Translations under genes and position numbers: made by a program
NCBI GenBank assembly: GCA_041651355.1
Contig: JBAZJK010000001.1
Location: 101,883 to 165,882 of the forward strand
DNA: 64,000 nt
Reading direction: 5' to 3'
Origin: Patescibacteria group bacterium
GTDB lineage: Bacteria; Patescibacteriota; Patescibacteriia; Patescibacteriales; UBA12465
In this document: one piece after another, positions 3,219 to 63,998 of the stretch
How the letters are laid out: every line of letters starts with the position of its first letter
How positions within the stretch are numbered: position 1 is the stretch's first letter
The notes under the pieces: model-generated
Database searches by the model: none
What the model was told of the DNA's origin: nothing
The model's input: the letters and a program-made list of their open reading frames with translations, nothing else

Positions 3219-5321
3219 TTATTCGAAATGGATTTCATTTTCCCATTGTCCTAGTTTTTCTTTCAGGAGAGGATAATCTTTTAATTCCGGATCTTCTTTA
3301 ACTATTTTTTCGGCTTCATCTTTAGCTTTCTTGATCAGCTCATAATCGAATAGGGTGGCAATTTTTATTTCCGGCCAGCCGCTTTGGTTGGCGCCATAGA
3401 TATCGCCCGCCCCCCTCAACTTGAGATCGATCTTAGCGAGGCTCAAGCCATCGCTGTATTTGGTGAGGGCTTCTAGACGCCTAAGACTTTTATCACTCAT
3501 TTCTTGTTCGTTGCTAGGGAAAAGGAGACAATATGATTGATGCGGCCCGCGTCCGACTCGGCCGCGGAATTGATGGAGCTGGGCTAAACCGAAGCGCTCC
3601 GCTCCTTCGATTATCATGACACTGGCATTTGGTACGTCGACACCCACTTCGATAACTGAAGTAGCGACCAGTATTTTAGTCTTCTTATCCAAGAAGTCTT
3701 GCATTACCTTGTCTTTCTCATCACTTTTGAGGCGTCCGTGCAGCAGGCCGACAGGGAGGTCAGGAAAAATTTCTTTATCCAGGCGTTCATGTTCAGCTTT
3801 GACTGATTTATAGCCGCTTTTATCGGATTCGTCGATCAGAGGACAGATGACAAATATCTGCCGGCCTTCAGAGATTTGCCGTCTGATAAATTCATAGCTT
3901 TTTATCCTTTCTTTTTCGCTAATTATTTTGGTAATTACCGTTTTTCTGCCAGCCGGCATTTGCTTGATTAAAGATAGGTCCAGATCCCCGTAGATCGCTA
4001 AAGCTAAAGAGCGGGGAATCGGGGTGGCGGTCATTGATAAGAAGTGAGGAATGAGATTTTTAGTGCCGGAAGAAACTATCTTATGCCGCTGGACTACGCC
4101 GAAACGATGCTGTTCATCGACTACGATCAGGCCTAATTGCCGGAAATCTAAACGATCTTGGATTAAGGCATGAGTGCCGATTATTATATCGGCATTGTCT
4201 AGGATTTCTTTGGTAATAGCAGTAGTTTTAGCCTGGCCTTTCAGGGATGGGTTTATATTGTCAGCCTGGTAGTTGATATTTTTTTGCCCCCTAGTTAATA
4301 GTCCGATTTTCACGTTAAAGCCGCCGAGGAGCCGGTTAAGGGAATTGAAATGTTGGCTAGCCAGGATTTCTGTGGGCGCCATAAGCACCCCCTGGTAGGC
4401 ATTTAAAGCGGTATTGAATAAAGCTAGGGCGGCTACTAGGGTTTTGCCACTTCCGACATCGCCTTCCAGCAGACGCGACATAGCTTGGCTTTTTTCAAGG
4501 TCATTGAGGATTTCCCAGGCGGCGCGCCTTTGGTCGTCGGTCAGTTTGAAGGGCAGGCTGGCCACAAATTTTTTAGTCGCCGTTTCTTGGAATTTGATAA
4601 GCGGCGCTTGTTTGGTCCGAAGCTGGTTTTTGGTCGATTCAGCTTTCAACTGGCGTAGGAATAAATCACCGAAATTAAGGCGCTGGGAAGCTGCCTGGGC
4701 TGCAGTCGGATCTTTGGGAAAATGCGCTTGAGCCAGGGCTTCGCCCAAGGTTAATAATTTTAGATTTTTTCTGACTCTTTCTGGTAGCCAGTCAGGAATG
4801 TACTTAGTTAAAGGCAAGGCTTGCTTGATTAGGAATCTTATTTGTTTTTGGCTGAGCCCGGCGCTCAGATGGTAGCGGGGAATGAGGCCTTTAGTATGTA
4901 TCAGGTCAGCAGAGTTTATTTTTTCGTATATCGGTGACACTAAGCTTAATTGGCCATAATTATCACTAACCTTTCCTGCTAAGGAAACCTGATCGCCTGC
5001 CTTAAGATTGCGAGCCAGGAAGGGTTGGTTAAACCAGATAACTTTAATGGTTTCGCTCTCATCGCTGACTAGAGCTTCGGTTAGGTATTTTCTTTGTCTG
5101 GCGCTCCGCTTATTTTGAATTAATTCAATGGTACCGATAATTGTGACAGTTTCCCCGGCTTTTAAATCTTTGATCAGCTTAGTCTCTCTAAGATCGTCAT
5201 AGCGGAAAGGCACATAAAAAAGCAGGTCTTGGGCTTGAGCCAGACCTAGCTTTTTTAAGTATTTAGCCGTAGTTTTACCAACTCGTGATAAGTCGGAAAT
5301 AGGGGAATTGAGCTGAAGCAT
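3219..5321 (-). CDS. recG: ATP-dependent DNA helicase RecG
   Basis: 700 aa with an N-terminal wedge/OB region, Walker A GDVGSGKT, the VVDEQHRFG motif and helicase C motifs (QLHQFRGRVGRG). Confidence 0.95.
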   Translation of the reverse strand: MLQLNSPISDLSRVGKTTAKYLKKLGLAQAQDLLFYVPFRYDDLRETKLIKDLKAGETVTIIGTIELIQNKRSARQRKYLTEALVSDESETIKVIWFNQPFLARNLKAGDQVSLAGKVSDNYGQLSLVSPIYEKINSADLIHTKGLIPRYHLSAGLSQKQIRFLIKQALPLTKYIPDWLPERVRKNLKLLTLGEALAQAHFPKDPTAAQAASQRLNFGDLFLRQLKAESTKNQLRTKQAPLIKFQETATKKFVASLPFKLTDDQRRAAWEILNDLEKSQAMSRLLEGDVGSGKTLVAALALFNTALNAYQGVLMAPTEILASQHFNSLNRLLGGFNVKIGLLTRGQKNINYQADNINPSLKGQAKTTAITKEILDNADIIIGTHALIQDRLDFRQLGLIVVDEQHRFGVVQRHKIVSSGTKNLIPHFLSMTATPIPRSLALAIYGDLDLSLIKQMPAGRKTVITKIISEKERIKSYEFIRRQISEGRQIFVICPLIDESDKSGYKSVKAEHERLDKEIFPDLPVGLLHGRLKSDEKDKVMQDFLDKKTKILVATSVIEVGVDVPNASVMIIEGAERFGLAQLHQFRGRVGRGPHQSYCLLFPSNEQEMSDKSLRRLEALTKYSDGLSLAKIDLKLRGAGDIYGANQSGWPEIKIATLFDYELIKKAKDEAEKIVKEDPELKDYPLLKEKLGQWENEIHFE

Positions 5322-5420: not shown

Positions 5421-5948
5421 TTATAATTTAAATAGTTTCGTCAACTGTTCGGATAGGGGGACATCGGTTCGCTCTAAATCCTCGTCTAAGTATCTGAGTA
5501 AGAAGTTCCTGACCAGGATTGGGTTCATATGACGCAAGGGAATCGATAGACGGGGGCGGAAAGAATTTTTAAATTCAAAATAAAGGTTTTTGACGCTTTG
5601 CTTGGGCTTATATATGACGGCGAAGTGCTTGAAGCTGTCATAATCATAGAACTTGTTCCCGATTTTTATCCCTTCACTCTCCAGATATATATTAACCATC
5701 AGGGCTGGGCGACCATCATTGATTATGATTATTATAGAGGAGATTATTAGGATAAGGGCAAATAGGAAATTAGAGTTAGCCCCTAAAAATGTTAGCTTCC
5801 AGCCGGAAAAACTGAAAAAAGAGAAGAAGAGGCAGAGGAATAGGAATATGCCGGCGATTATATACCAACGGCGGCCTCTTTCAGGGCGTCGATATTCCGG
5901 CACCGGCCAGACTAATTTTTGGGGCATATTTTGCTTATCAATAGCCAT
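5421..5948 (-). CDS. hypothetical membrane protein
   Basis: 175-aa ORF with two central TM helices. An extended -10 (TGgTATAAT) lies upstream on the minus strand. Confidence 0.6.
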   Translation of the reverse strand: MAIDKQNMPQKLVWPVPEYRRPERGRRWYIIAGIFLFLCLFFSFFSFSGWKLTFLGANSNFLFALILIISSIIIIINDGRPALMVNIYLESEGIKIGNKFYDYDSFKHFAVIYKPKQSVKNLYFEFKNSFRPRLSIPLRHMNPILVRNFLLRYLDEDLERTDVPLSEQLTKLFKL

Positions 5949-5957
5949 ATTTTCAAA

Positions 5958-5986
5958 TTGACATTATTGCTTTTATTTTATATAGT
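5958..5986 (+). promoter_or_regulatory. sigma70-type promoter for tRNA-Ser(GCT)
   Basis: TTGACA (5958-5963), a 17-nt spacer, then TATAGT (5981-5986), about 30 nt upstream of the tRNA. Confidence 0.5.
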
Positions 5987-5988
5987 GA

Positions 5989-7698
5989 TTATACCACAAA
6001 AATCAGACGAGATAAATTGGAGAGGTGCCGGAGCGGTCGAACGGGGCACCCTGCTAAGGTGTTATCCTTGAAAGAGGATCGAGGGTTCGAATCCCTCCCT
6101 CTCCGCAGAACGGGACGAAGCGAGTCTAAAAACTCATTTCGTCCTTTTTTTATCGGCATTTTTGAAAGTTCGAACGTAGCAATTTTGGCGTTTAGGAGTT
6201 CTCGATTTTTTTCTATCGGCAATAGCCATTTGAACGCTAATATTTCAAGTTTTTTGTCTTCAAGAAAAAAGTTCGAACCGAGCGAAGACAATATCTCTCT
6301 TTTCTTCTCGGATTCGCCATTCACGAATTGATTAAGGCCATGACAGGCCAGTTCGAAGGTTTGTTTAGTCAGCTTTAAAACCTTTTCTTCTCTGATCTCG
6401 TCATAGCCGTCTAAATCGTCCAATTTGGCCATTTCGCGGGTCAGTTCGTTCTTAGCTTCCAAATATTCATCGTCGCTTAACAAGTCCCGACATTTCATTT
6501 TAGTGAGGCTTTTTAGTTCCTCTTTGAGCTTTTCCATAGACTTGCCCGTATTGGCCTTTATAGCCTCGTCTTTGGCCGTTTCTTCCTGTTTCAGCTCATC
6601 TATAATCTCCAGCCCCAAGTCCAAAAAGGCGGGGTTAAGCTCATATTTTTGCAGTTCGGCGATTATTTGTTTGTCCATAGCTTCACGGTCGACGGAAGAC
6701 TGTCCGCAAGAATAATCGCGACGTCTGTGGGCGCAATAGTAATAGGCATAAACCTTGTTTTGACCGGTTTGTTTATTAAATTTTGTCTTGAAATCGGCCG
6801 TTATCAAACAGCCGCACTCTTTGCATTTTATCAATCCCCGATAAGGGAAATCTTTTTCTTGCCGGCGCGGTTTTCCGTCTCGGCCCATTATGGTTTGAAT
6901 TTGGTCGTATTGGGAAATTGTTATTAAACGTTTGTGCTTGCCTTTGGTTTCCTGTCCGCCGTAATTGATTATTCCGGCGTAAAACGGATTGGTAAAAATT
7001 CTGTAAATCGCACTACGCGACAATTCTTTGCCGCCGAGACTGCGAATTTTTCTTGTCTTGTATCCCCATTCGCCGTTCATCTTTTCCAAAATTTCGGGAA
7101 CACTATAATTGCCGGTCAACATCAAATCGAAAGCCCGGCGCAATAACGGGAAACGTTCCGGGTCAGGGACGATAATGCTGAAATTACTGTTTTCGTCTTG
7201 TCTGTTTAGATAACCTTCGGGCGCTTTGTTCGGTAGCCAACCCATGGAAAACTTTTTTTCCAAACCGCGGCGGACATCTTTTCCAAGTTTCGACGAAAAA
7301 TATTGTGATTGGCTAAGCGCCAATTGCAACATCATTATGCCTTCGGGGGAATTGTCGAAATTATAGGAACCGAATTTCAAATCTTTGATGACGCCCGTGC
7401 GAACCAAGTATGAAATCGTCGAAGCGTCTATCTCGTTGCGGCTTAATCTGTCCGGATGCCAGGCAATAATTCCTTCCGCTTCGCCCTTTCGGATGCGCTT
7501 TATCATCTCGGCAAAAACGGGGCGATTGTACGGCGAAAAAGCGCTGTGCTTTTCTTCCAAAATTTCCACTATTTCCAAACCGTTGAAGAATTCCCGAACT
7601 TTGTCCTTTTGGCTTTCAATGGACAAGGCCTGACGTTCTTCGCCCTCGGTGGATTTTCGGACATAAGCGAAATATTTAATTTTAGTCGCCGTTGTCAT
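5989..7698 (-). CDS. large serine recombinase (integrase). The 3' end runs antisense through tRNA-Ser(GCT).
   Basis: Resolvase-type N-terminus YVRKSTEGEERQALSIESQ (catalytic Ser region), a recombinase domain, a zinc ribbon CKECGC...CAHRRRDYSC and a coiled-coil. The last roughly 55 aa are encoded opposite the tRNA, its terminator and its promoter. Confidence 0.9.
   Translation of the reverse strand: MTTATKIKYFAYVRKSTEGEERQALSIESQKDKVREFFNGLEIVEILEEKHSAFSPYNRPVFAEMIKRIRKGEAEGIIAWHPDRLSRNEIDASTISYLVRTGVIKDLKFGSYNFDNSPEGIMMLQLALSQSQYFSSKLGKDVRRGLEKKFSMGWLPNKAPEGYLNRQDENSNFSIIVPDPERFPLLRRAFDLMLTGNYSVPEILEKMNGEWGYKTRKIRSLGGKELSRSAIYRIFTNPFYAGIINYGGQETKGKHKRLITISQYDQIQTIMGRDGKPRRQEKDFPYRGLIKCKECGCLITADFKTKFNKQTGQNKVYAYYYCAHRRRDYSCGQSSVDREAMDKQIIAELQKYELNPAFLDLGLEIIDELKQEETAKDEAIKANTGKSMEKLKEELKSLTKMKCRDLLSDDEYLEAKNELTREMAKLDDLDGYDEIREEKVLKLTKQTFELACHGLNQFVNGESEKKREILSSLGSNFFLEDKKLEILAFKWLLPIEKNRELLNAKIATFELSKMPIKKGRNEFLDSLRPVLRRGRDSNPRSSFKDNTLAGCPVRPLRHLSNLSRLIFVV
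6019..6105 (+). tRNA. tRNA-Ser (anticodon GCT)
   Basis: 87 nt with acceptor GGAGAGG/CCTCTCC, anticodon loop CTGCTAA, a long variable arm, T loop GGTTCGAATCC and discriminator G. Confidence 0.9.
6113..6151 (+). terminator. rho-independent terminator of tRNA-Ser(GCT)
   Basis: GGACGAA...TTCGTCC stem with inner gagt/actc pairing, followed by T7. Confidence 0.6.
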
Positions 7699-56334: not shown

Positions 56335-58500
56335 ATGAAAAATCCTAATAAAAAAATCTTAATTTCCCTGTCTATTGCTTGTCTTTTAGGATTATTCGCC
56401 TACCTCTCGCCCACCCTGGCTAAGGTCATAAACTTTGGTACTGGTAGTGATACTTCCTACTTTCCCGGTAATATTGGCGTGGGCGCAACCACTACTGATA
56501 AATTAAACGTTAGCGGTACTTTAAGAGTCACTGGGACAACCACCTTAGCCGCCTATACTGGCCAAGGCAACCAGTGCCTTTATGTGGATAACGGCGGTAT
56601 CGTCAGGATGCTGGGCAGCCAATGCGGTTCAGCAACCGGCGGCGATAATCTAGGTAATCATACCGCAACCCAAAACCTTAATTTAGCAGCTAACGCTTTA
56701 GTAGGTAACGGCGGCAGTACTGGTATTACGATTTCTAGCGGTGGAGCGGTAAGCGTTGCTAATGGTCTGACTTTGACTTCTGGAACTCTATCTTTGCCTA
56801 ATAACGCAGTCACTGATGCTATGGTCTCTGACACTCTAACTGCTTCTAACCTAGTATCCGGTAGTGCAGTCGTTTCGGATGCGGAGGTGGATAATAATAT
56901 AACCGTTACTAGCGGCACGATTGGCAGTAATAACGTTTCTTCCGCTTCTACTTGGACAACTTTAGGCACGTTGACGATTGGTGATAATGGTGATGCAGTT
57001 TTGATGTCAGCCACTAATTGGGATGTTGATTCTTCTGGCAATATCTTTGCTAATGGTGGATTTTCCACGTATGACACAACAGTGACTGATAACTATATCG
57101 AAGCCGGAGGCTTTTGTATGGGCAATGGCACCAACTGCATTACCTCTTGGACTAATGCTGGCGGCAACGTTAACGCTTCTTCGCCGACCGCTAATTATGT
57201 CACTAAATTTTCTGACAGCGATACGATTGCTAATTCACAGATTTTTGATAATGGTTCTGGAGTTGGCATCGGCACCACCACTGTTTCCTCGGCTCGCTTA
57301 GTGGTTGATAGCGCCTCAACATATAGCATTGATGCTGGGGGTAAGCCAATGATTAATGTAGGTATATCCGCTGATCCCACCGCTTCTGTTAATAGGAATT
57401 ATGTAGATTCAGCTATAGCCGGTATTAGTGGCGGCGGTGGTTACTGGATGACGACTGGTAGTGCTATCTATGCTACAAGTACCATGACCAGTGTCGGTGT
57501 TGGTACAACCTCTCCAACCGCTCCTTTTGAGGTCTATGGCGGTTTCTATATGGGTGGCGGTAGTGGCGATGTTGATAATAATGGATATGTTAATTCCATC
57601 GACGCCTTGATCGCTGCTCAATTTGCTCATAATTTAACTAGCTTAACTCCTTTGCAACAGGCCATGGCTGATGTCGATGGTGACGGCATGGTAACTGATT
57701 TTGATGCTAAGAACATCATGAAAAGGTTTGTAAATATTTATAGTAGTCGTAATCAGATGAATACAGAAAGTCGGAGACTCAAAGCTCTCGGGCTTAATTT
57801 TGACGGTAGCGGACAAGTAATGATTGGTTATAGCGATTATTCTAATGAGGTGTATATGCGCGATCGTTTTACCGTTTTTGGCACATCTTTAATGGACACA
57901 ACAGCGACCAGCACCTTTAATCCCTCTAATAGCACCTCAAGTGCCTTGATGCTCACCGGCCCTTATGGCGGAGGCTTGATATTCAAAGACACCGCTTATG
58001 GTGGCCTTTGGATGTCTGATAGCGGCCAGACTTTGAATTTTGCCTCTAATGGCAGTGGTAGCGGTTTCGGTAGCACTTACGGCCAAATGGTTTTAAAGAA
58101 TGGTAACGTCGGCATTAGCACTACTAATCCAACCAGGCCATTGCATGTTGTCGGTAACGTCCAGGTAGATTCTGGTTCCGTAACCGCTGATGCTTTCTAC
58201 TATAATTCTGACCGGACTTTGAAGAAGGATATTAAGCCGATATATGGAGCTTTAGCTAAAGTTTTGAACTTACAGGGTGTCTCCTTTAAATGGCGCGATA
58301 GCGGGGAAGCCAACTATGGCTTTATCGCTCAAGATGTAGAAAAAGTGTTACCAGAGTTAGTGGAAACCGGAGTCGATGGCAAGAAATCTGTCGCCTATGG
58401 TAATTTCACTGCCATATTAGTAGAAGCTCTTAAAACTCAGCAAAAGGAAATTGATTCTCTACAGGCTAGGGTTAAGTCCTTGGAAAGCAGCCTAAAATAG
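56335..58500 (+). CDS. secreted fibre-like protein with dockerin-like repeats and C-terminal S74 intramolecular-chaperone domain
   Basis: Signal peptide and GIGTT-type motifs. A dockerin-like pair is present (GDVDNNGYVNSIDALIAAQ and ADVDGDGMVTDFDAKNIMKRF). The C-terminus SDRTLKKDIKPI...GFIAQDVEKVLPELV...VAYGNFTAILVEALK matches the Peptidase_S74 pattern. Confidence 0.8.
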   Translation: MKNPNKKILISLSIACLLGLFAYLSPTLAKVINFGTGSDTSYFPGNIGVGATTTDKLNVSGTLRVTGTTTLAAYTGQGNQCLYVDNGGIVRMLGSQCGSATGGDNLGNHTATQNLNLAANALVGNGGSTGITISSGGAVSVANGLTLTSGTLSLPNNAVTDAMVSDTLTASNLVSGSAVVSDAEVDNNITVTSGTIGSNNVSSASTWTTLGTLTIGDNGDAVLMSATNWDVDSSGNIFANGGFSTYDTTVTDNYIEAGGFCMGNGTNCITSWTNAGGNVNASSPTANYVTKFSDSDTIANSQIFDNGSGVGIGTTTVSSARLVVDSASTYSIDAGGKPMINVGISADPTASVNRNYVDSAIAGISGGGGYWMTTGSAIYATSTMTSVGVGTTSPTAPFEVYGGFYMGGGSGDVDNNGYVNSIDALIAAQFAHNLTSLTPLQQAMADVDGDGMVTDFDAKNIMKRFVNIYSSRNQMNTESRRLKALGLNFDGSGQVMIGYSDYSNEVYMRDRFTVFGTSLMDTTATSTFNPSNSTSSALMLTGPYGGGLIFKDTAYGGLWMSDSGQTLNFASNGSGSGFGSTYGQMVLKNGNVGISTTNPTRPLHVVGNVQVDSGSVTADAFYYNSDRTLKKDIKPIYGALAKVLNLQGVSFKWRDSGEANYGFIAQDVEKVLPELVETGVDGKKSVAYGNFTAILVEALKTQQKEIDSLQARVKSLESSLK

Positions 58501-58527
58501 TTATCAGTTTGAATTAATCTATCTCTT

Positions 58528-59133
58528 ATGAAGACTAATCGGCCAATTTTTAATCAAAAGATGTTTCTGGCGATGGGAGTAGTTTTAGCTGTCTTCCTAA
58601 TTATTTTAGTGATCGTCGACATTTCTCGCCGGAGCGGGAAGGAAGCCGCCAAAAAAGTCTATCCAGAGACCACTGATAAGTCGACGGAGCTCGTTATTCC
58701 GGTTGGCCGGACCGAAACCGAACCCAGCCCATTCAGGGCAGAGGTGCCAGCCAATACGGTCGTGCCCGAGATGGATTCTGACCCCAAGAAGATAACGGAC
58801 AAAGAAATCGTGGTTCCGACTTATGTGGCGCCCGCCGCTCCAGGGATTGAAAGCAAGTTCCGGATTTTTGATATCAAGGGGGAGGATAACGCATATAACC
58901 CCAGCAAGATCATTGCCAGAGTCGGGGATACTGTTCATGTTAATTTTACCGCCGTTGATAAGGATTATGATATAATCTTTCCTGACTATAGCATGTCACA
59001 GCAAGCTAAGATGGGCCAGACCAAAGTTTTAGAGTTCCAGGCCTTGCAAGAAGGTGATTTCTTATACTATTGCCAAGCTTGCGGCGGACCTAATAGTACG
59101 GCTGTCGGCCATATAATCATCGTTAATAAATAG
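58528..59133 (+). CDS. membrane-anchored degenerate cupredoxin-fold protein
   Basis: N-terminal TM helix. The C-terminal domain resembles that of 55671..56324 (GDTVHVNFTAVDKDYDIIF, GDFLYYCQACGGPNSTAVGHIIIV) but lacks canonical copper-ligand spacing. Confidence 0.55.
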   Translation: MKTNRPIFNQKMFLAMGVVLAVFLIILVIVDISRRSGKEAAKKVYPETTDKSTELVIPVGRTETEPSPFRAEVPANTVVPEMDSDPKKITDKEIVVPTYVAPAAPGIESKFRIFDIKGEDNAYNPSKIIARVGDTVHVNFTAVDKDYDIIFPDYSMSQQAKMGQTKVLEFQALQEGDFLYYCQACGGPNSTAVGHIIIVNK

Positions 59134-59155
59134 TCTTGATAATTAGATTTTTTAT

Positions 59156-60631
59156 ATGTTAAAAAAATCTACCATACCAATCAGCTTGATGTTGCTCAGT
59201 TTAGTGGTCTTTTCGATAGTCTCCATTAAGACCGCTTTGGCGGCCGGTTACGTCAATGTCACCAATGGCTATCAGATTCTGGTTAATCAGGGGATAGTAA
59301 ATTTAACCGCCCAGACCCGGAGCATTAATATCGACACTTCGAAGGTGACGACATCATTTTTTATCCCTACTAAGACTGTGGGCGAAGTAGATTCATATCT
59401 AGCTAGCCCTTTGCATACAGCCGTGCAGCAAGGGGGTGACACTACTCCGCCGACTTTCACCTTGGTTAGCCTAACCCCGACCCAGAACTATACTTATGCT
59501 AGTTTTTCTATTAATGAAAACGGGTATTATAAGTTTGCTCAAAGTACAAGCGGTTATCCTTCCGAGCCTGGCACGGCTTGGATGCCAATGACCGCTAATT
59601 CAAATTATCTTGTAAATATCGGCGGGCAGTATAACACCTTCTATTACTACCGTATATTCTATAAGGATGCGGCTGATAATTCTGGCGTTTATAGTGGTAC
59701 ACTGACCACGGCTTCTGACACTCAAGCCCCTAGTATAAGCATTTCTTACGGTCCGGCCCTGTCAAGTACGAATCCACCAGCCTATGAAATAAACTTTTAT
59801 ATGAATGAAAACGGCCAATACGGTTTTGCTTATAGTCCGAGTTCTTATCCAGATCCGGCCACTAACCAATCCGCAACTGCTTACCAGGTCTATAATCATC
59901 TAATTGGTGATCAGGCTAATACGGGTTATTATTATACAATAAAAGCTAAAGATGCTGCTGGTAATACTAGCACTCACCAGAATTATGTTGTAACAACTAG
60001 CGATACAACTGGACCAGTGTTATCTGAAATCACTGATTCTCCTGGGCATGATCCAGCGACCTTAATTAGTTTTATCTCTGATGAAGCCGGAGAATACCAG
60101 ATATTATATGCAGCCACTGAAGAAGATCTAATGAATATGGATGAACCAGTATCTTGGGAGACAATGTCTGCGGGCAATAATGGTAAAGAAATCGGTGATG
60201 AAACAGTGAATACTAATTTCTACTATATAATTTATGCTCGTGACACCTTGTTTAATACCAGTAACTCAGGGGTACTAACGGTAGGAAGTCCTGGTAGTGA
60301 TGATGGTAATCCTGATATTTCTATTGTCGGCCAAAGGCCTAGCGCCACTCCGCCAGCCATGGAGATACTGATTCAAAACGATGGCGCCGACGAAACTTTT
60401 TATCAACTTTTCTGGTCAATCGATCGTGAGTATATTAATACCTTGAAAGATATTGAACCAGCTAAAAATGGACAAGCCTTAGGTGCTCCTGGTAGATCTA
60501 TTACCGAATTGGTCGGTGACACCCCCTATACCCATTATTTCTATAGGATATTCACTCAGAATCCGCATAGACCGGAGACCATTAATTCTACTAATAGTTT
60601 AGAATTGGACACTGAAGGAGGCGCGGATTGA
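59156..60631 (+). CDS. secreted protein with four Ig-like repeats
   Basis: Signal peptide ...KTALA|AG. Four modules of about 95 aa each begin with D(T)T.P and contain a Y(Y)Y.I.A.D.AGN-type motif. Confidence 0.75.
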   Translation: MLKKSTIPISLMLLSLVVFSIVSIKTALAAGYVNVTNGYQILVNQGIVNLTAQTRSINIDTSKVTTSFFIPTKTVGEVDSYLASPLHTAVQQGGDTTPPTFTLVSLTPTQNYTYASFSINENGYYKFAQSTSGYPSEPGTAWMPMTANSNYLVNIGGQYNTFYYYRIFYKDAADNSGVYSGTLTTASDTQAPSISISYGPALSSTNPPAYEINFYMNENGQYGFAYSPSSYPDPATNQSATAYQVYNHLIGDQANTGYYYTIKAKDAAGNTSTHQNYVVTTSDTTGPVLSEITDSPGHDPATLISFISDEAGEYQILYAATEEDLMNMDEPVSWETMSAGNNGKEIGDETVNTNFYYIIYARDTLFNTSNSGVLTVGSPGSDDGNPDISIVGQRPSATPPAMEILIQNDGADETFYQLFWSIDREYINTLKDIEPAKNGQALGAPGRSITELVGDTPYTHYFYRIFTQNPHRPETINSTNSLELDTEGGAD

Positions 60632-61288: not shown

Positions 61289-63424
<2,136 letters not shown>

Positions 63425-63454
63425 ACAAAAAATCTCCCGAGCGGGAGATCTTTG
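63425..63454. terminator. bidirectional hairpin terminator, repeat copy 1
   Basis: ACAAAAAATCTCCC-gagc-GGGAGATCTTTG. The identical 30-mer recurs at 63969-63998. Confidence 0.6.
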
Positions 63455-63536
63455 CGGTTTCACTATAGTAGTTGTATGAGCCGAACTTTAGCTTTTTCAA
63501 TATAGCAAATTTTATAGCTAAAGTCAATTAACTTTT

Positions 63537-63609
63537 TGGTGGACCCGCGGGGATTTGAACCCCGGAAACCGAAATGCTAAAGTTCAGTTCACTACCGATA
63601 GTCGGGCCC
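63537..63609 (-). tRNA. non-canonical tRNA-like gene (Ala-type acceptor, encoded CCA, aberrant D and anticodon arms)
   Basis: Hand fold gives acceptor GGGCCCG/CGGGTCC with G3:U70, T arm CGGGG-TTCAAAT-CCCCG and A73 plus CCA. The D arm is only ACTA-TCGG-TAGT. The anticodon arm is a 7-bp stem AACTGAA/TTCGGTT with a 9-nt loop CTTTAGCAT. Confidence 0.5.
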
Positions 63610-63680
63610 ACGAAAAAATATCATAGCATAGAGCCCTTCAGGGAAAATCAAAGGAAAAATAAATTTTTGTTAAATCATAT

Positions 63681-63968
63681 ATGTCTCTTAAACTTGCCGA
63701 AGTAAAACATATTGCCGACTTATCTCGTTTGGAGCTGAGCCCAGCCGAACTTAAGACCTATGGAGCTCAACTATCATCCGTTTTAGATTATATTGATAAG
63801 TTAAAAGAGGTAAAAACTATGCCTCATGATTTTTTAAGCCCAGATTCCGACCTGAATAATATCTGGCGTTTGGACGAGGTGAGGGCTTGGGATAAAAATG
63901 AAGTCGAAGCCGCCTTAAAGCAAGGCGATTTAGAGGGGCGTCTGATTAGGGTGAAGAAAGTTTTATAG
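63681..63968 (+). CDS. gatC: Asp/Glu-tRNA amidotransferase subunit C
   Basis: 95 aa. VKHIADLSRLELSPAELKTYGAQLSSVLDYIDKLKEV is a typical GatC sequence. Confidence 0.85.
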   Translation: MSLKLAEVKHIADLSRLELSPAELKTYGAQLSSVLDYIDKLKEVKTMPHDFLSPDSDLNNIWRLDEVRAWDKNEVEAALKQGDLEGRLIRVKKVL

Positions 63969-63998
63969 ACAAAAAATCTCCCGAGCGGGAGATCTTTG
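63969..63998. terminator. bidirectional hairpin terminator, repeat copy 2
   Basis: The same 30-mer as at 63425-63454. Confidence 0.6.

Follow-up and report, generated by a model that had tools for sequence, protein, structure and literature searches.

A tRNA-Ala-like RNA gene and a predicted complementary small RNA gene form a conserved module in Patescibacteria

What is encoded on the minus strand between ligA (61304-63424) and gatC (63681-63968), two plus-strand genes in a 64,000-nucleotide stretch of DNA from a Patescibacteria group bacterium (GenBank assembly GCA_041651355.1, contig JBAZJK010000001.1, positions 101,883 to 165,882; the whole of this stretch is called the window below)? A large part of bacterial diversity belongs to the Patescibacteria, whose regulation is hardly understood. 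The original prediction for the locus, made from the letters of the window, described a non-canonical transfer RNA (tRNA)-like gene with an alanine-type acceptor stem and considered a decaying pseudogene, a suppressor or frameshift-type tRNA, and a tRNA-mimic regulatory RNA. Here, we describe the anatomy of this gene and of a predicted small RNA (sRNA) gene directly downstream. We show that the two are conserved as a module, that positions covary inside the cloverleaf as well as from one RNA to the other, and that the pairs are specific. The explanation that we prefer, with middling confidence, is a conserved two-gene RNA module of Patescibacteria in which a derived paralogue of tRNA-Ala(GGC), with an alanine-identity top half, would be gated by its cognate antisense RNA.

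Read on the minus strand, positions 63609-63537 have the sequence GGGCCCG-ACUAUCGGUAGU-GAACUGAA-CUUUAGCAU-UUCGGUUU-C-CGGGG-UUCAAAU-CCCCG-CGGGUCC-A-CCA, in which the 70 nucleotides from G1 to A73 (63540..63609) fold as a tRNA-Ala-like cloverleaf. As originally predicted, the acceptor stem (63609-63603 with 63547-63541) consists of seven perfect pairs including G3:U70, the D hairpin (63602-63591; 4 bp and a 4-nucleotide loop) abuts the acceptor stem without nucleotides 8-9, the T arm (63564-63548) is canonical, and A73 is followed by an encoded CCA, which the three ordinary tRNAs of the window lack. The arm in the place of the anticodon arm required some revision: the 9-nucleotide loop CUUUAGCAU (63582-63574) stood, whereas the stem, taken for 7 bp, was found to comprise 8 bp, two of them G.U, between a 5′ strand at 63590-63583 and a 3′ strand at 63573-63565, and a single nucleotide rather than two separates it from the T stem. 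The cloverleaf is the minimum-free-energy fold (-28 kcal/mol). Compared with shuffled sequences this fold is unremarkable (z = -2.07; 6 of 200 shuffles fold equally well), and it is the comparative data given below, not the single-sequence fold, by which a chance origin of the window cloverleaf is excluded. An extended -10 element (TGcTATGAT, 63620..63628, minus strand) with no good -35 was read upstream of the gene. Of the 5′ leader UUUUCGU (63610..63616), U-1 pairs with A73 and more bases pair with the 3′ trailer (63533..63539), which starts with CCA in the window copy, so that the acceptor helix is lengthened.

Just upstream of this -10 element, a perfect palindrome CCCTGAAGGG was present at 63633-63642. 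It occupied the same site in the second copy of the module described below and in two close relatives, L005 and L135, in the former as CCCTAAAGGG, and was not seen in other classes of module; it could be an operator or a small hairpin.

All other elements of the module also lie on the minus strand. The predicted sRNA, of approximately 65 nucleotides with its 5′ end near 63492, is situated between its own promoter and a terminator. The near-consensus promoter (TTGACT, 17 nucleotides, TGcTATATT; 63499..63527) starts nine bases past the CCA, and the sRNA complements the lower half of the cloverleaf in three ordered blocks. Block 1 (63477..63496), the predicted 5′ end, complements the loop and the 5′ strand of the arm (63572-63591) by 17 Watson-Crick pairs and one G.U over 20 positions, a match scored as 85% complementary in the repeat search. 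The exact complementarity between a 10-mer of the arm and 63483-63492, which had been pointed out before, is part of this longer match of 18 out of 20 over 63477-63496. Block 2 (ACUACUAUAGU, 63462..63472) was found by RNAduplex to complement the D hairpin region at 63602-63591. Block 3 (GAAACCG, 63455..63461) complements CGGUUUC at 63571-63565, the 3′ strand of the arm right before the T stem. The earlier idea that the anticodon arm can be sequestered came near to this but was too narrow in scope, since complementarity extends to the D hairpin and to the 3′ strand that would be displaced from the arm. A strong intrinsic terminator, with its hairpin at 63453-63428 and a T run to 63427 (63427..63453), closes the module; it is bidirectional and also ends the convergent ligA.

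A paralogous copy of the module (copy B, as opposed to copy A in the window) splits the gatCA gene pair. Its terminator, 33 nucleotides at 63966..63998 on the minus strand, is 97% identical to 63422-63454, and the rest of copy B is found just past the end of the window between gatC and gatA (L001, 10290-10480, with the tRNA-like gene at 10389-10472; 81.6 bits with the covariance model R1 introduced below). The two copies have identical acceptor stems and D arms, T arms one base apart, and promoters and terminators approximately 85% identical. The divergence between them lies chiefly in the arm and loop (18/26) and in that part of the sRNA which pairs (26/46), as would be expected under selection against cross-talk between modules.

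The closest LigA relatives after the window genome's own were Falkowbacteria. Relatives with a LigA 83-85% identical (L005, L007 and L135) displayed the same arrangement after ligA, L008 (LigA 70%) had copy B only, L013 (62%) had one copy after ligA, and L011 (63%) had none. In the relatives found through LigA the sRNA changed in a complementary fashion wherever the loop and arm changed: the loop and arm read ACUUUAGC with the sRNA GCUAAAGU in window copy A, ACUUUGAC with GUCAAAGU in L005, CCAAAACUUAAC with GUUAAGUUUUGG in copy B, and GAGACUGAAAUUGACACUC with GAGUGUCAAUUUCGGUCUC in L013. Sampling of metagenomes through LigA gave 14 loci, of which only one (85% identity) had modules, and the ligA-adjacent synteny is therefore taken to be confined to a subclade. 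The sRNA on the L005 contig fitted the copy-B cloverleaf of L135 better than that of L005 itself, and L005 may be a chimeric join. Short-read contigs of the relatives (the ends of L005/L006, L007 and L010; L003) broke inside the cloverleaf gene or within approximately 50 nucleotides of it, as would be the case if the conserved 3′ half were repeated within each genome.

The same comparison bears on a second complementary copy, which had been proposed to form a local hairpin just 3′ of the CCA. The complementarity is there (63516-63524 with 63485-63493, 9 out of 9), but 63516-63524 is part of the sRNA promoter (its -35 box and spacer), and the hairpin is not conserved: its upstream arm stays TTGACTTTAGC in L005 while the sRNA becomes GUCAAAGU, and copy B has no match. 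The promoter copy of GACUUUAGC likewise remained unchanged in relatives whose loop and sRNA had changed as a pair. The original suggestion of a tRNA-mimic regulatory RNA with a sequestering element came close; what did not hold was the cis-acting 3′ tail toggling between two hairpins, the element being a separately promoted sRNA gene.

Species-representative genomes were scanned for the 24-mer GGGGTTCRANYCCCCGCGGGTCCA, which gave at least 120 loci. The covariance model R1 and an alignment, A1, were built on 47 cloverleaves, and 46 complete modules were analysed in detail. Among the 120 loci listed, at least 49 had the module architecture and scored 61-94 bits with R1, as compared to at most 50 bits for real tRNAs; in the window R1 gave 80.6 bits at 63540-63609 and no other such match. 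The remaining listed loci were approximately 45 ordinary tRNA-Ala(GGC) genes of other Patescibacteria, which share the acceptor stem and T arm with the module cloverleaves, unrelated archaeal and actinobacterial tRNAs, and one transfer-messenger RNA (tmRNA). Named hosts among the matches listed were Falkowbacteria, Magasanikbacteria, Brennerbacteria, Yanofskybacteria and Spechtbacteria, in addition to many other Patescibacteria, and several genomes held at least two to four modules among these matches. The 6.4-kb contig L021 carried three tandem modules within 3.3 kb (2726-2808, 3241-3321 and 5931-6012, minus strand).

Included in the 49 are two related cloverleaves with 64-66 bits, at 5071-5155 on the minus strand of L115, a metagenome-assembled genome labelled Peribacteria, and at 2747-2831 on the plus strand of L123, labelled Gracilibacteria. 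Both have an encoded CCA with their own terminator directly after it. No antisense partner was seen beside these two; a same-sense 15-nucleotide repeat of the arm (CAUCGCUAGGAUCGUC) was located approximately 60 nucleotides downstream. This variant could be a different sub-type or an integration scar.

Within the cloverleaf, 89.5% of the cells in the 47-sequence alignment A1 were paired, as against 78% after shuffling, and the covariation score was 0.337 against 0.139, a value reached by none of 500 shuffles and by no slid control (at most 0.145). Double changes were detected in all four pairs of the D stem and all eight pairs of the arm. The leader-trailer helix (A1 columns 3-7 with 77-81; approximately 5 bp) had U-1:A73 in 47 out of 47 sequences, and the four pairs beyond it covaried with GC, CG, UA and AU types. 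The encoded CCA was not kept, relatives having ACCC, ACCG or ACAA at the same positions.

The promoters were conserved to different degrees. In all 46 complete modules the sRNA promoter matched at least 9 of the 12 consensus positions, with a mean of 10.4 as compared to 7.4 for the cloverleaf promoter; its -35 averaged 5.2/6 against 2.6/6, and TGn was present in 85%. The cloverleaf -10 averaged 4.8/6 with TGn in 63%. Since this -10 box mostly ends 10-12 nucleotides upstream of G1, the leader should be only about 4-6 nucleotides long and nearly all paired. The spacing between the sRNA promoter and the point where complementarity begins is short and fixed, whereas a variable 7-77 nucleotides separate the promoter from the tRNA-like gene. 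In many modules block 2 contains CCA, the complement of the D-loop GG, in most of them block 3 follows block 2 with a gap of 0-1 nucleotides and reads GAGAC, GAAAC or AAGAC, and every module is closed by a terminator of the kind found in the window.

Pairing between the two RNAs was specific to each module. The sRNA was predicted by RNAduplex to pair with the body of the cloverleaf in 46 out of 46 modules, at -21 to -49 kcal/mol, and the mean duplex energy was -36.0 kcal/mol for cognate pairs, -17.6 for non-cognate pairs and -14.4 for shuffled sRNAs. The cognate sRNA was the best partner for 40 of the 46 cloverleaves, and paralogues within a genome were mostly orthogonal. A gapped per-column count of pairing proved too permissive, with 60-90% for non-cognate partners, and was replaced by an ungapped register anchored on the loop hexamer. 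In this register the twelve positions of A1 columns 30-41, the loop and inner arm, were paired in 89-100% of the modules as compared to 47-88% with shuffled partners, and in the variable columns 523 of 597 cells were paired, where shuffled partners gave 355 on average and 387 at most. The cells that were not Watson-Crick were G.U in 38 cases and A.C in 13, and this excess argues for pairing at the RNA level on the minus strand rather than for an inverted repeat in DNA. RNAcofold, although it had to give up the acceptor stem, put the complex below the two separate folds in free energy in all 46 modules (mean difference, ddG, -15.9 kcal/mol).

These results leave next to no probability for an explanation devoid of RNA function, in which a decaying tRNA-Ala pseudogene would stand beside a chance or DNA-level inverted repeat, for instance a terminator or insulator cassette between convergent genes. 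The unexceptional fold of the window cloverleaf (z = -2.07) would fit it, as would the fact that the downstream neighbour of the modules is mostly convergent and has the bidirectional terminator in common with them. It is contradicted by at least 49 loci of the same architecture, compensatory changes in three intramolecular helices and the intermolecular one, the bias of G.U over A.C, two conserved promoters in a fixed register, and cognate-specific pairs. A pseudogene or a chance repeat is by these comparative data excluded as far as computation can do so. The decaying pseudogene of the original prediction is likewise at odds with a gene that has its own promoter, is conserved across many Patescibacteria, and shows compensatory changes in the D stem, the arm and the leader-trailer helix.

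From what was the cloverleaf derived, and does it still decode? Its acceptor stem (GGGCCCG/CGGGUCC), A73 and the whole T arm are identical to those of approximately 45 true tRNA-Ala(GGC) of other Patescibacteria, from which descent from tRNA-Ala(GGC) is inferred. The consensus of the loop is N-Y-U-U-R-R-C-A-N (9 nucleotides), and its core UURRCA resembles the tRNA-Ala(GGC) anticodon loop A-U-G-G-C-A-U with transitions at 34 and 35, in a wider loop. The simplest origin, judging by these sequence likenesses, is probably a duplicated or redundant tRNA-Ala(GGC) gene. Among the matches listed, a module and a tRNA-Ala(GGC) with the same acceptor stem and T arm never occurred in one assembly, and module-bearing assemblies gave up to four matches, all of them modules; this is no more than a hint that the module replaced the tRNA-Ala(GGC) isoacceptor in module-bearing lineages. 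Independently of the search pattern, the LigA-found L005, L008, L013 and L135 had the same acceptor stem, apart from C71U in one L135 copy; the sequence of L007 is cut short inside the T arm. Two L021 copies, found by R1 and not by the pattern, have the acceptor stem GGGGGUG/CACCUCC, still with G3:U70 and A73, and keep the leader-trailer helix, their own promoter and a complementary sRNA. The T loop of these variant copies is UGCAAAU or UGCAACU (G instead of U at 55) and their D region is without GG, which may be a co-varying change of the elbow contact.

It is very unlikely, in our judgement, that the cloverleaf is a decoding tRNA, that is, a suppressor, frameshifting or mistranslating tRNA-Ala with an anticodon masked by the downstream RNA. 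The set of AlaRS (alanyl-tRNA synthetase) identity elements, the canonical T arm and the U-U-R-R-C-A core with its likeness to the tRNA-Ala(GGC) loop would suit such a tRNA, and a 7-bp acceptor stem, a discriminator base, a 5-bp T stem and a T loop of 7 nucleotides (UUCRANY) were all found. Other tRNA features were missing: nucleotides 8-9 and 26 are absent, the D arm has 3-4 bp and a D loop of 4 nucleotides in place of the required 7-11, there is no variable region of at least 4 nucleotides but 0-1 nucleotide before the T stem, and an arm of 8 bp in the window, 8-9 bp in the family, with a 9-nucleotide loop takes the place of a 5-bp stem with a 7-nucleotide loop. In the window ARAGORN found the three ordinary tRNAs and none at the cloverleaf, and Rfam at gathering thresholds gave no tRNA there either. 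Of the 47 family members 46 were rejected by ARAGORN, and one was called as Pro with wrong ends. Any match to the Rfam tRNA family (RF00005) must lie below the 26.7-bit match of the same-clan tmRNA and thus below the tRNA threshold of 29. The triplet in the loop is AGC in the window, GAC in L005 and L135, and AAC, GGU, GUC or AUC elsewhere, and always covaries with the sRNA. Variation of the triplet even among close orthologues, in step with the sRNA, argues that the loop is constrained as a pairing site and not as an anticodon. The UUA triplet on which a suppressor reading UAA had been suggested does not recur, and neither that suggestion nor the frameshift tRNA is supported by a triplet that varies freely with the partner RNA. 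Compared with tRNA-Ala(GGC) proper, the cloverleaf thus unites an identical top half and a similar loop core with an unconserved triplet, a dedicated antisense partner and a structure missed by tRNA finders. Conservation and covariation in related genomes, the check put forward with the original prediction, gave a module that is kept and a cloverleaf and partner that covary.

Some likeness to the tRNA-like domain of tmRNA was also seen. When Rfam was searched by E-value, tmRNA (RF00023) ranked first with 26.7 bits against a threshold of 47, and no other family gave a meaningful match; the two ends of the model aligned, and 304 internal positions of it were deleted. The permuted tmRNA (RF04321) gave 16 bits at the cloverleaf, and mascRNA a weak 20.6. 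Like that domain, the cloverleaf has an acceptor stem with G3:U70, a T arm, GG a few bases past the acceptor stem, and an arm abutting the T stem with no variable loop, as the helix that substitutes for the anticodon stem does in tmRNA. In contrast to tmRNA, the GGAUUCGAC / GGAC elements are absent and there are several copies per genome. A tmRNA was not found at the cloverleaf by ARAGORN, and we rejected this class: the interior is a 25-nucleotide hairpin with no pseudoknots and no tag reading frame, and the D-loop consensus is absent. A tag frame in the sRNA was rejected also, as the sole upstream frame (GCU...UAG) was not kept in L005, and no stop codon is present in any frame at 63461-63427, from block 3 to the end of the terminator. 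Searches for smpB by tblastn with E. coli and B. subtilis SmpB, and for tmRNA by ARAGORN -m, over approximately 1 Mb, which was only part of the genomes, gave nothing patescibacterial. The smpB gene is highly expressed in ultra-small groundwater prokaryotes (PMC9938205), and ordinary trans-translation probably exists in the phylum.

Could the two RNAs be a single functional RNA in two pieces? In this explanation the four-way junction of cloverleaf and sRNA would itself be the functional form, an alanine-accepting minihelix on a helical handle that acts as an Ala donor off the ribosome or as a stripped tmRNA-like rescue factor. The two genes are always adjacent and probably co-transcribed, the complex would leave exactly the acceptor/T minihelix free, and the sole Rfam similarity is to the tRNA-like domain of tmRNA, for which there is a precedent in jakobid mitochondria, where tmRNA has been cut down to that domain. 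Yet the D stem and arm of the cloverleaf covary, so that the free fold must be under selection too. For a rescue factor a message domain is lacking, given the absence of a stop at 63461-63427 and the upstream frame that is not conserved in L005, as are the tmRNA D-loop consensus and pseudoknots, and several modules per genome would be odd. Altogether we regard an obligate two-piece RNA as unlikely.

Our preferred explanation, the gated tRNA-Ala paralogue, resembles trans-acting antisense RNA pairs in that extended complementarity of two predicted RNAs is kept by compensatory change. Consensus promoters and terminators are present in all modules. Neither a small toxic peptide nor a conserved open reading frame was found in either RNA, and a type I toxin-antitoxin system was rejected. 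A bacterial Y RNA (YrlA) was also rejected, with a leader-trailer helix of only approximately 5 bp, no rsr-type neighbour in common and no Rfam Y RNA match to an E-value of 10.

For the proposed mechanism we infer transcription, processing, alanylation, the direction of control and the action of the free tRNA-like RNA. Gene 1 would give an RNA of approximately 70 nucleotides in which the top half of tRNA-Ala is kept: the acceptor stem of 7 bp including G3:U70, A73, the T arm and the GG-containing D loop, which in tRNA-Ala are read by AlaRS, RNase P/Z, the CCA-adding enzyme and EF-Tu. The lower half would have been reshaped, so that a mini D hairpin and a long arm, capped by a 9-nucleotide loop of the U-turn type, meet in a perfect four-way junction. 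Gene 2, directly downstream on the same strand, with its own stronger promoter and the common terminator, would give an sRNA of approximately 65-85 nucleotides antisense to the lower half only. The free 5′ end of this sRNA may dock on the loop as a toehold and then zip down the 5′ strand of the arm, displacing the 3′ strand; block 2 would open the D hairpin, including the D-loop GG expected to make the elbow contact with the T loop, and block 3 would finally capture the displaced 3′ strand. Since blocks 2 and 3 are contiguous in most sRNAs and the cloverleaf is without linker nucleotides, the complex is predicted to be a perfect four-way junction, consisting of the acceptor stem, the D region with block 2 running into the arm and loop with block 1, block 3 with the 3′ strand of the arm, and the T stem. 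In this new junction the acceptor/T minihelix would be intact, and the L-shape and the anticodon-like loop lost. The sRNA would be a cognate "anti-tRNA" that switches the mimic off, blocking whatever depends on the L-shape, or that marks a duplex of 25-30 bp for RNase III. With the stronger promoter at the sRNA and no terminator at the cloverleaf gene, the sequestered state would be the default.

Several points weigh against this explanation. The promoters and terminators are consensus matches only. With no terminator of its own, the cloverleaf gene should give transcripts that all contain the sRNA sequence in cis, and regulator and target are then hard to tell apart. Pairing of block 2 with the D arm is moderately specific (0.86 of positions in cognate pairs as compared to 0.73 in non-cognate pairs). 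The acceptor stem was kept in 0 of the 46 complexes computed by RNAcofold, a program that cannot model a pseudoknot, and the structures obtained differ from the proposed junction; an intermolecular duplex of 25-30 bp with the acceptor closed has a pseudoknot topology that needs threading of a strand. Because the 3′ strand was part of the search pattern, the invariance of the acceptor stem and T arm is partly, and perhaps largely, one of ascertainment, with independent support limited to the LigA-found loci and the two L021 variants. The conserved leader-trailer helix and the usual lack of an encoded CCA would also suit an RNA whose 3′ end is never processed into a chargeable one.

The action of the free tRNA-like RNA is the subject of another possible explanation, to which we give distinctly less weight than to the gated paralogue. 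Here, the pair would be an RNA-only, addiction-like toxin-antitoxin system in which a stable tRNA mimic is harmful when free and an unstable, strongly transcribed antisense RNA is the antidote; harm might come from titrating AlaRS, EF-Tu or RNase P, from jamming the ribosomal A site, or from inserting alanine at codons read by the loop. A tRNA fold is expected to give a long-lived RNA, the antisense promoter is stronger than that of the cloverleaf, several paralogous modules per genome have mostly orthogonal specificities, and divergence after duplication is concentrated in the specificity region, as in the paralogous families of antisense-controlled toxins known from type I systems. On the other hand, the modules occupy conserved chromosomal positions, such as ligA-gatC-gatA, and a search for viral modules with the 24-mer in IMG/VR gave 13 matches and no modules among them. 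RNA toxins are rare, and the long arm, the 9-nucleotide loop and the absence of nucleotides 8-9 and of a variable loop speak against ribosomal decoding. We put forward only tentatively a switch in which a stable alanine-accepting effector, freed from its over-produced anti-tRNA, blocks translation or miscodes by tRNA mimicry. If it were true, the modules would be a protein-free growth throttle or a means of locus maintenance in genome-reduced Patescibacteria, operating by natural toehold-mediated strand displacement.

How does the module relate to RNA pairs already described? In antisense systems such as CopA/CopT, RNAI/RNAII, RNA-OUT/RNA-IN and Sok/hok, U-turn loops of the YUNR type nucleate fast pairing. 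The U-U-R-R of the module loop is of this type, pairing by the free 5′ end of the partner recalls RNA-IN with RNA-OUT, and private specificities in paralogues and a predicted complex of the four-way-junction type are further likenesses. In contrast to those systems, a tRNA mimic is targeted, and neither module RNA is an mRNA, a primer or a replication control RNA; instead of overlapping, the genes follow one another on one strand, and there are three ordered blocks with capture of the displaced strand. Sponges and type VIII pairs, such as the 3′ETS-leuZ sponge, SdsR/RyeA and CreT/CreA, resemble the module in being two non-coding RNAs that are each other's main known partners, one of them tied to tRNA biology. 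However, a real tRNA operon yields 3′ETS as a by-product, and the sRNAs sponged by 3′ETS act on mRNAs, whereas the module pair is exclusive and co-evolving and one member has a full tRNA-like fold with aminoacylation identity elements. In MALAT1-mascRNA and the tRNA-miRNA genes of MHV68, a tRNA-like cloverleaf directly upstream of a small RNA on one transcript suits cleavage by RNase P/Z as it would here, but these are eukaryotic or viral, and the RNA downstream is neither antisense to the tRNA-like part nor served by a separate promoter.

No family in Rfam 15 covers either module RNA, and full-text literature searches on tRNA-like RNAs in Patescibacteria or the candidate phyla radiation (CPR) returned nothing relevant; an antisense sRNA combined with a U-turn loop and the top half of tRNA-Ala was not found in Rfam 15 or in the papers searched. 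From the sequence comparisons we rate the module as what appears to be a kind of system not described before, made of parts that are individually familiar. It is a conserved, multi-copy, protein-free RNA pair in Patescibacteria, to whose genes standard tRNA, tmRNA and Rfam annotation is blind. Should alanine be attached to the cloverleaf, tRNA-Ala and tmRNA would be joined by a third kind of RNA that accepts alanine, and the cloverleaf would show how a dispensable isoacceptor can be turned into a new device. The three-block antisense resembles an engineered strand-displacement circuit, and the family would offer dozens of naturally orthogonal RNA pairs.

The neighbourhoods of the modules gave no protein partner in common: when the open reading frames within 3 kb of the 47 modules were clustered, none was common to all classes, and the clusters reflected orthologous neighbourhoods only (the ligA/gatC/gatA class, a class with an HU-like gene, and others). 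In L032, L041, L063, L064 and L073 a second conserved terminator-like hairpin (AAAACCACCnnGGATTCCGTnnnGGTGGTTTT) was present approximately 100 nucleotides past the module, followed by a convergent gene for an HU-like DNA-binding protein. Upstream of ligA, the region 56335-60631 of the window encodes large secreted proteins of 721 amino acids (with dockerin and Peptidase_S74 matches) and 491 amino acids (with no matches), as well as cupredoxin-like proteins. Two small paralogous membrane proteins of 68 and 88 amino acids were kept beside ligA in the relatives.

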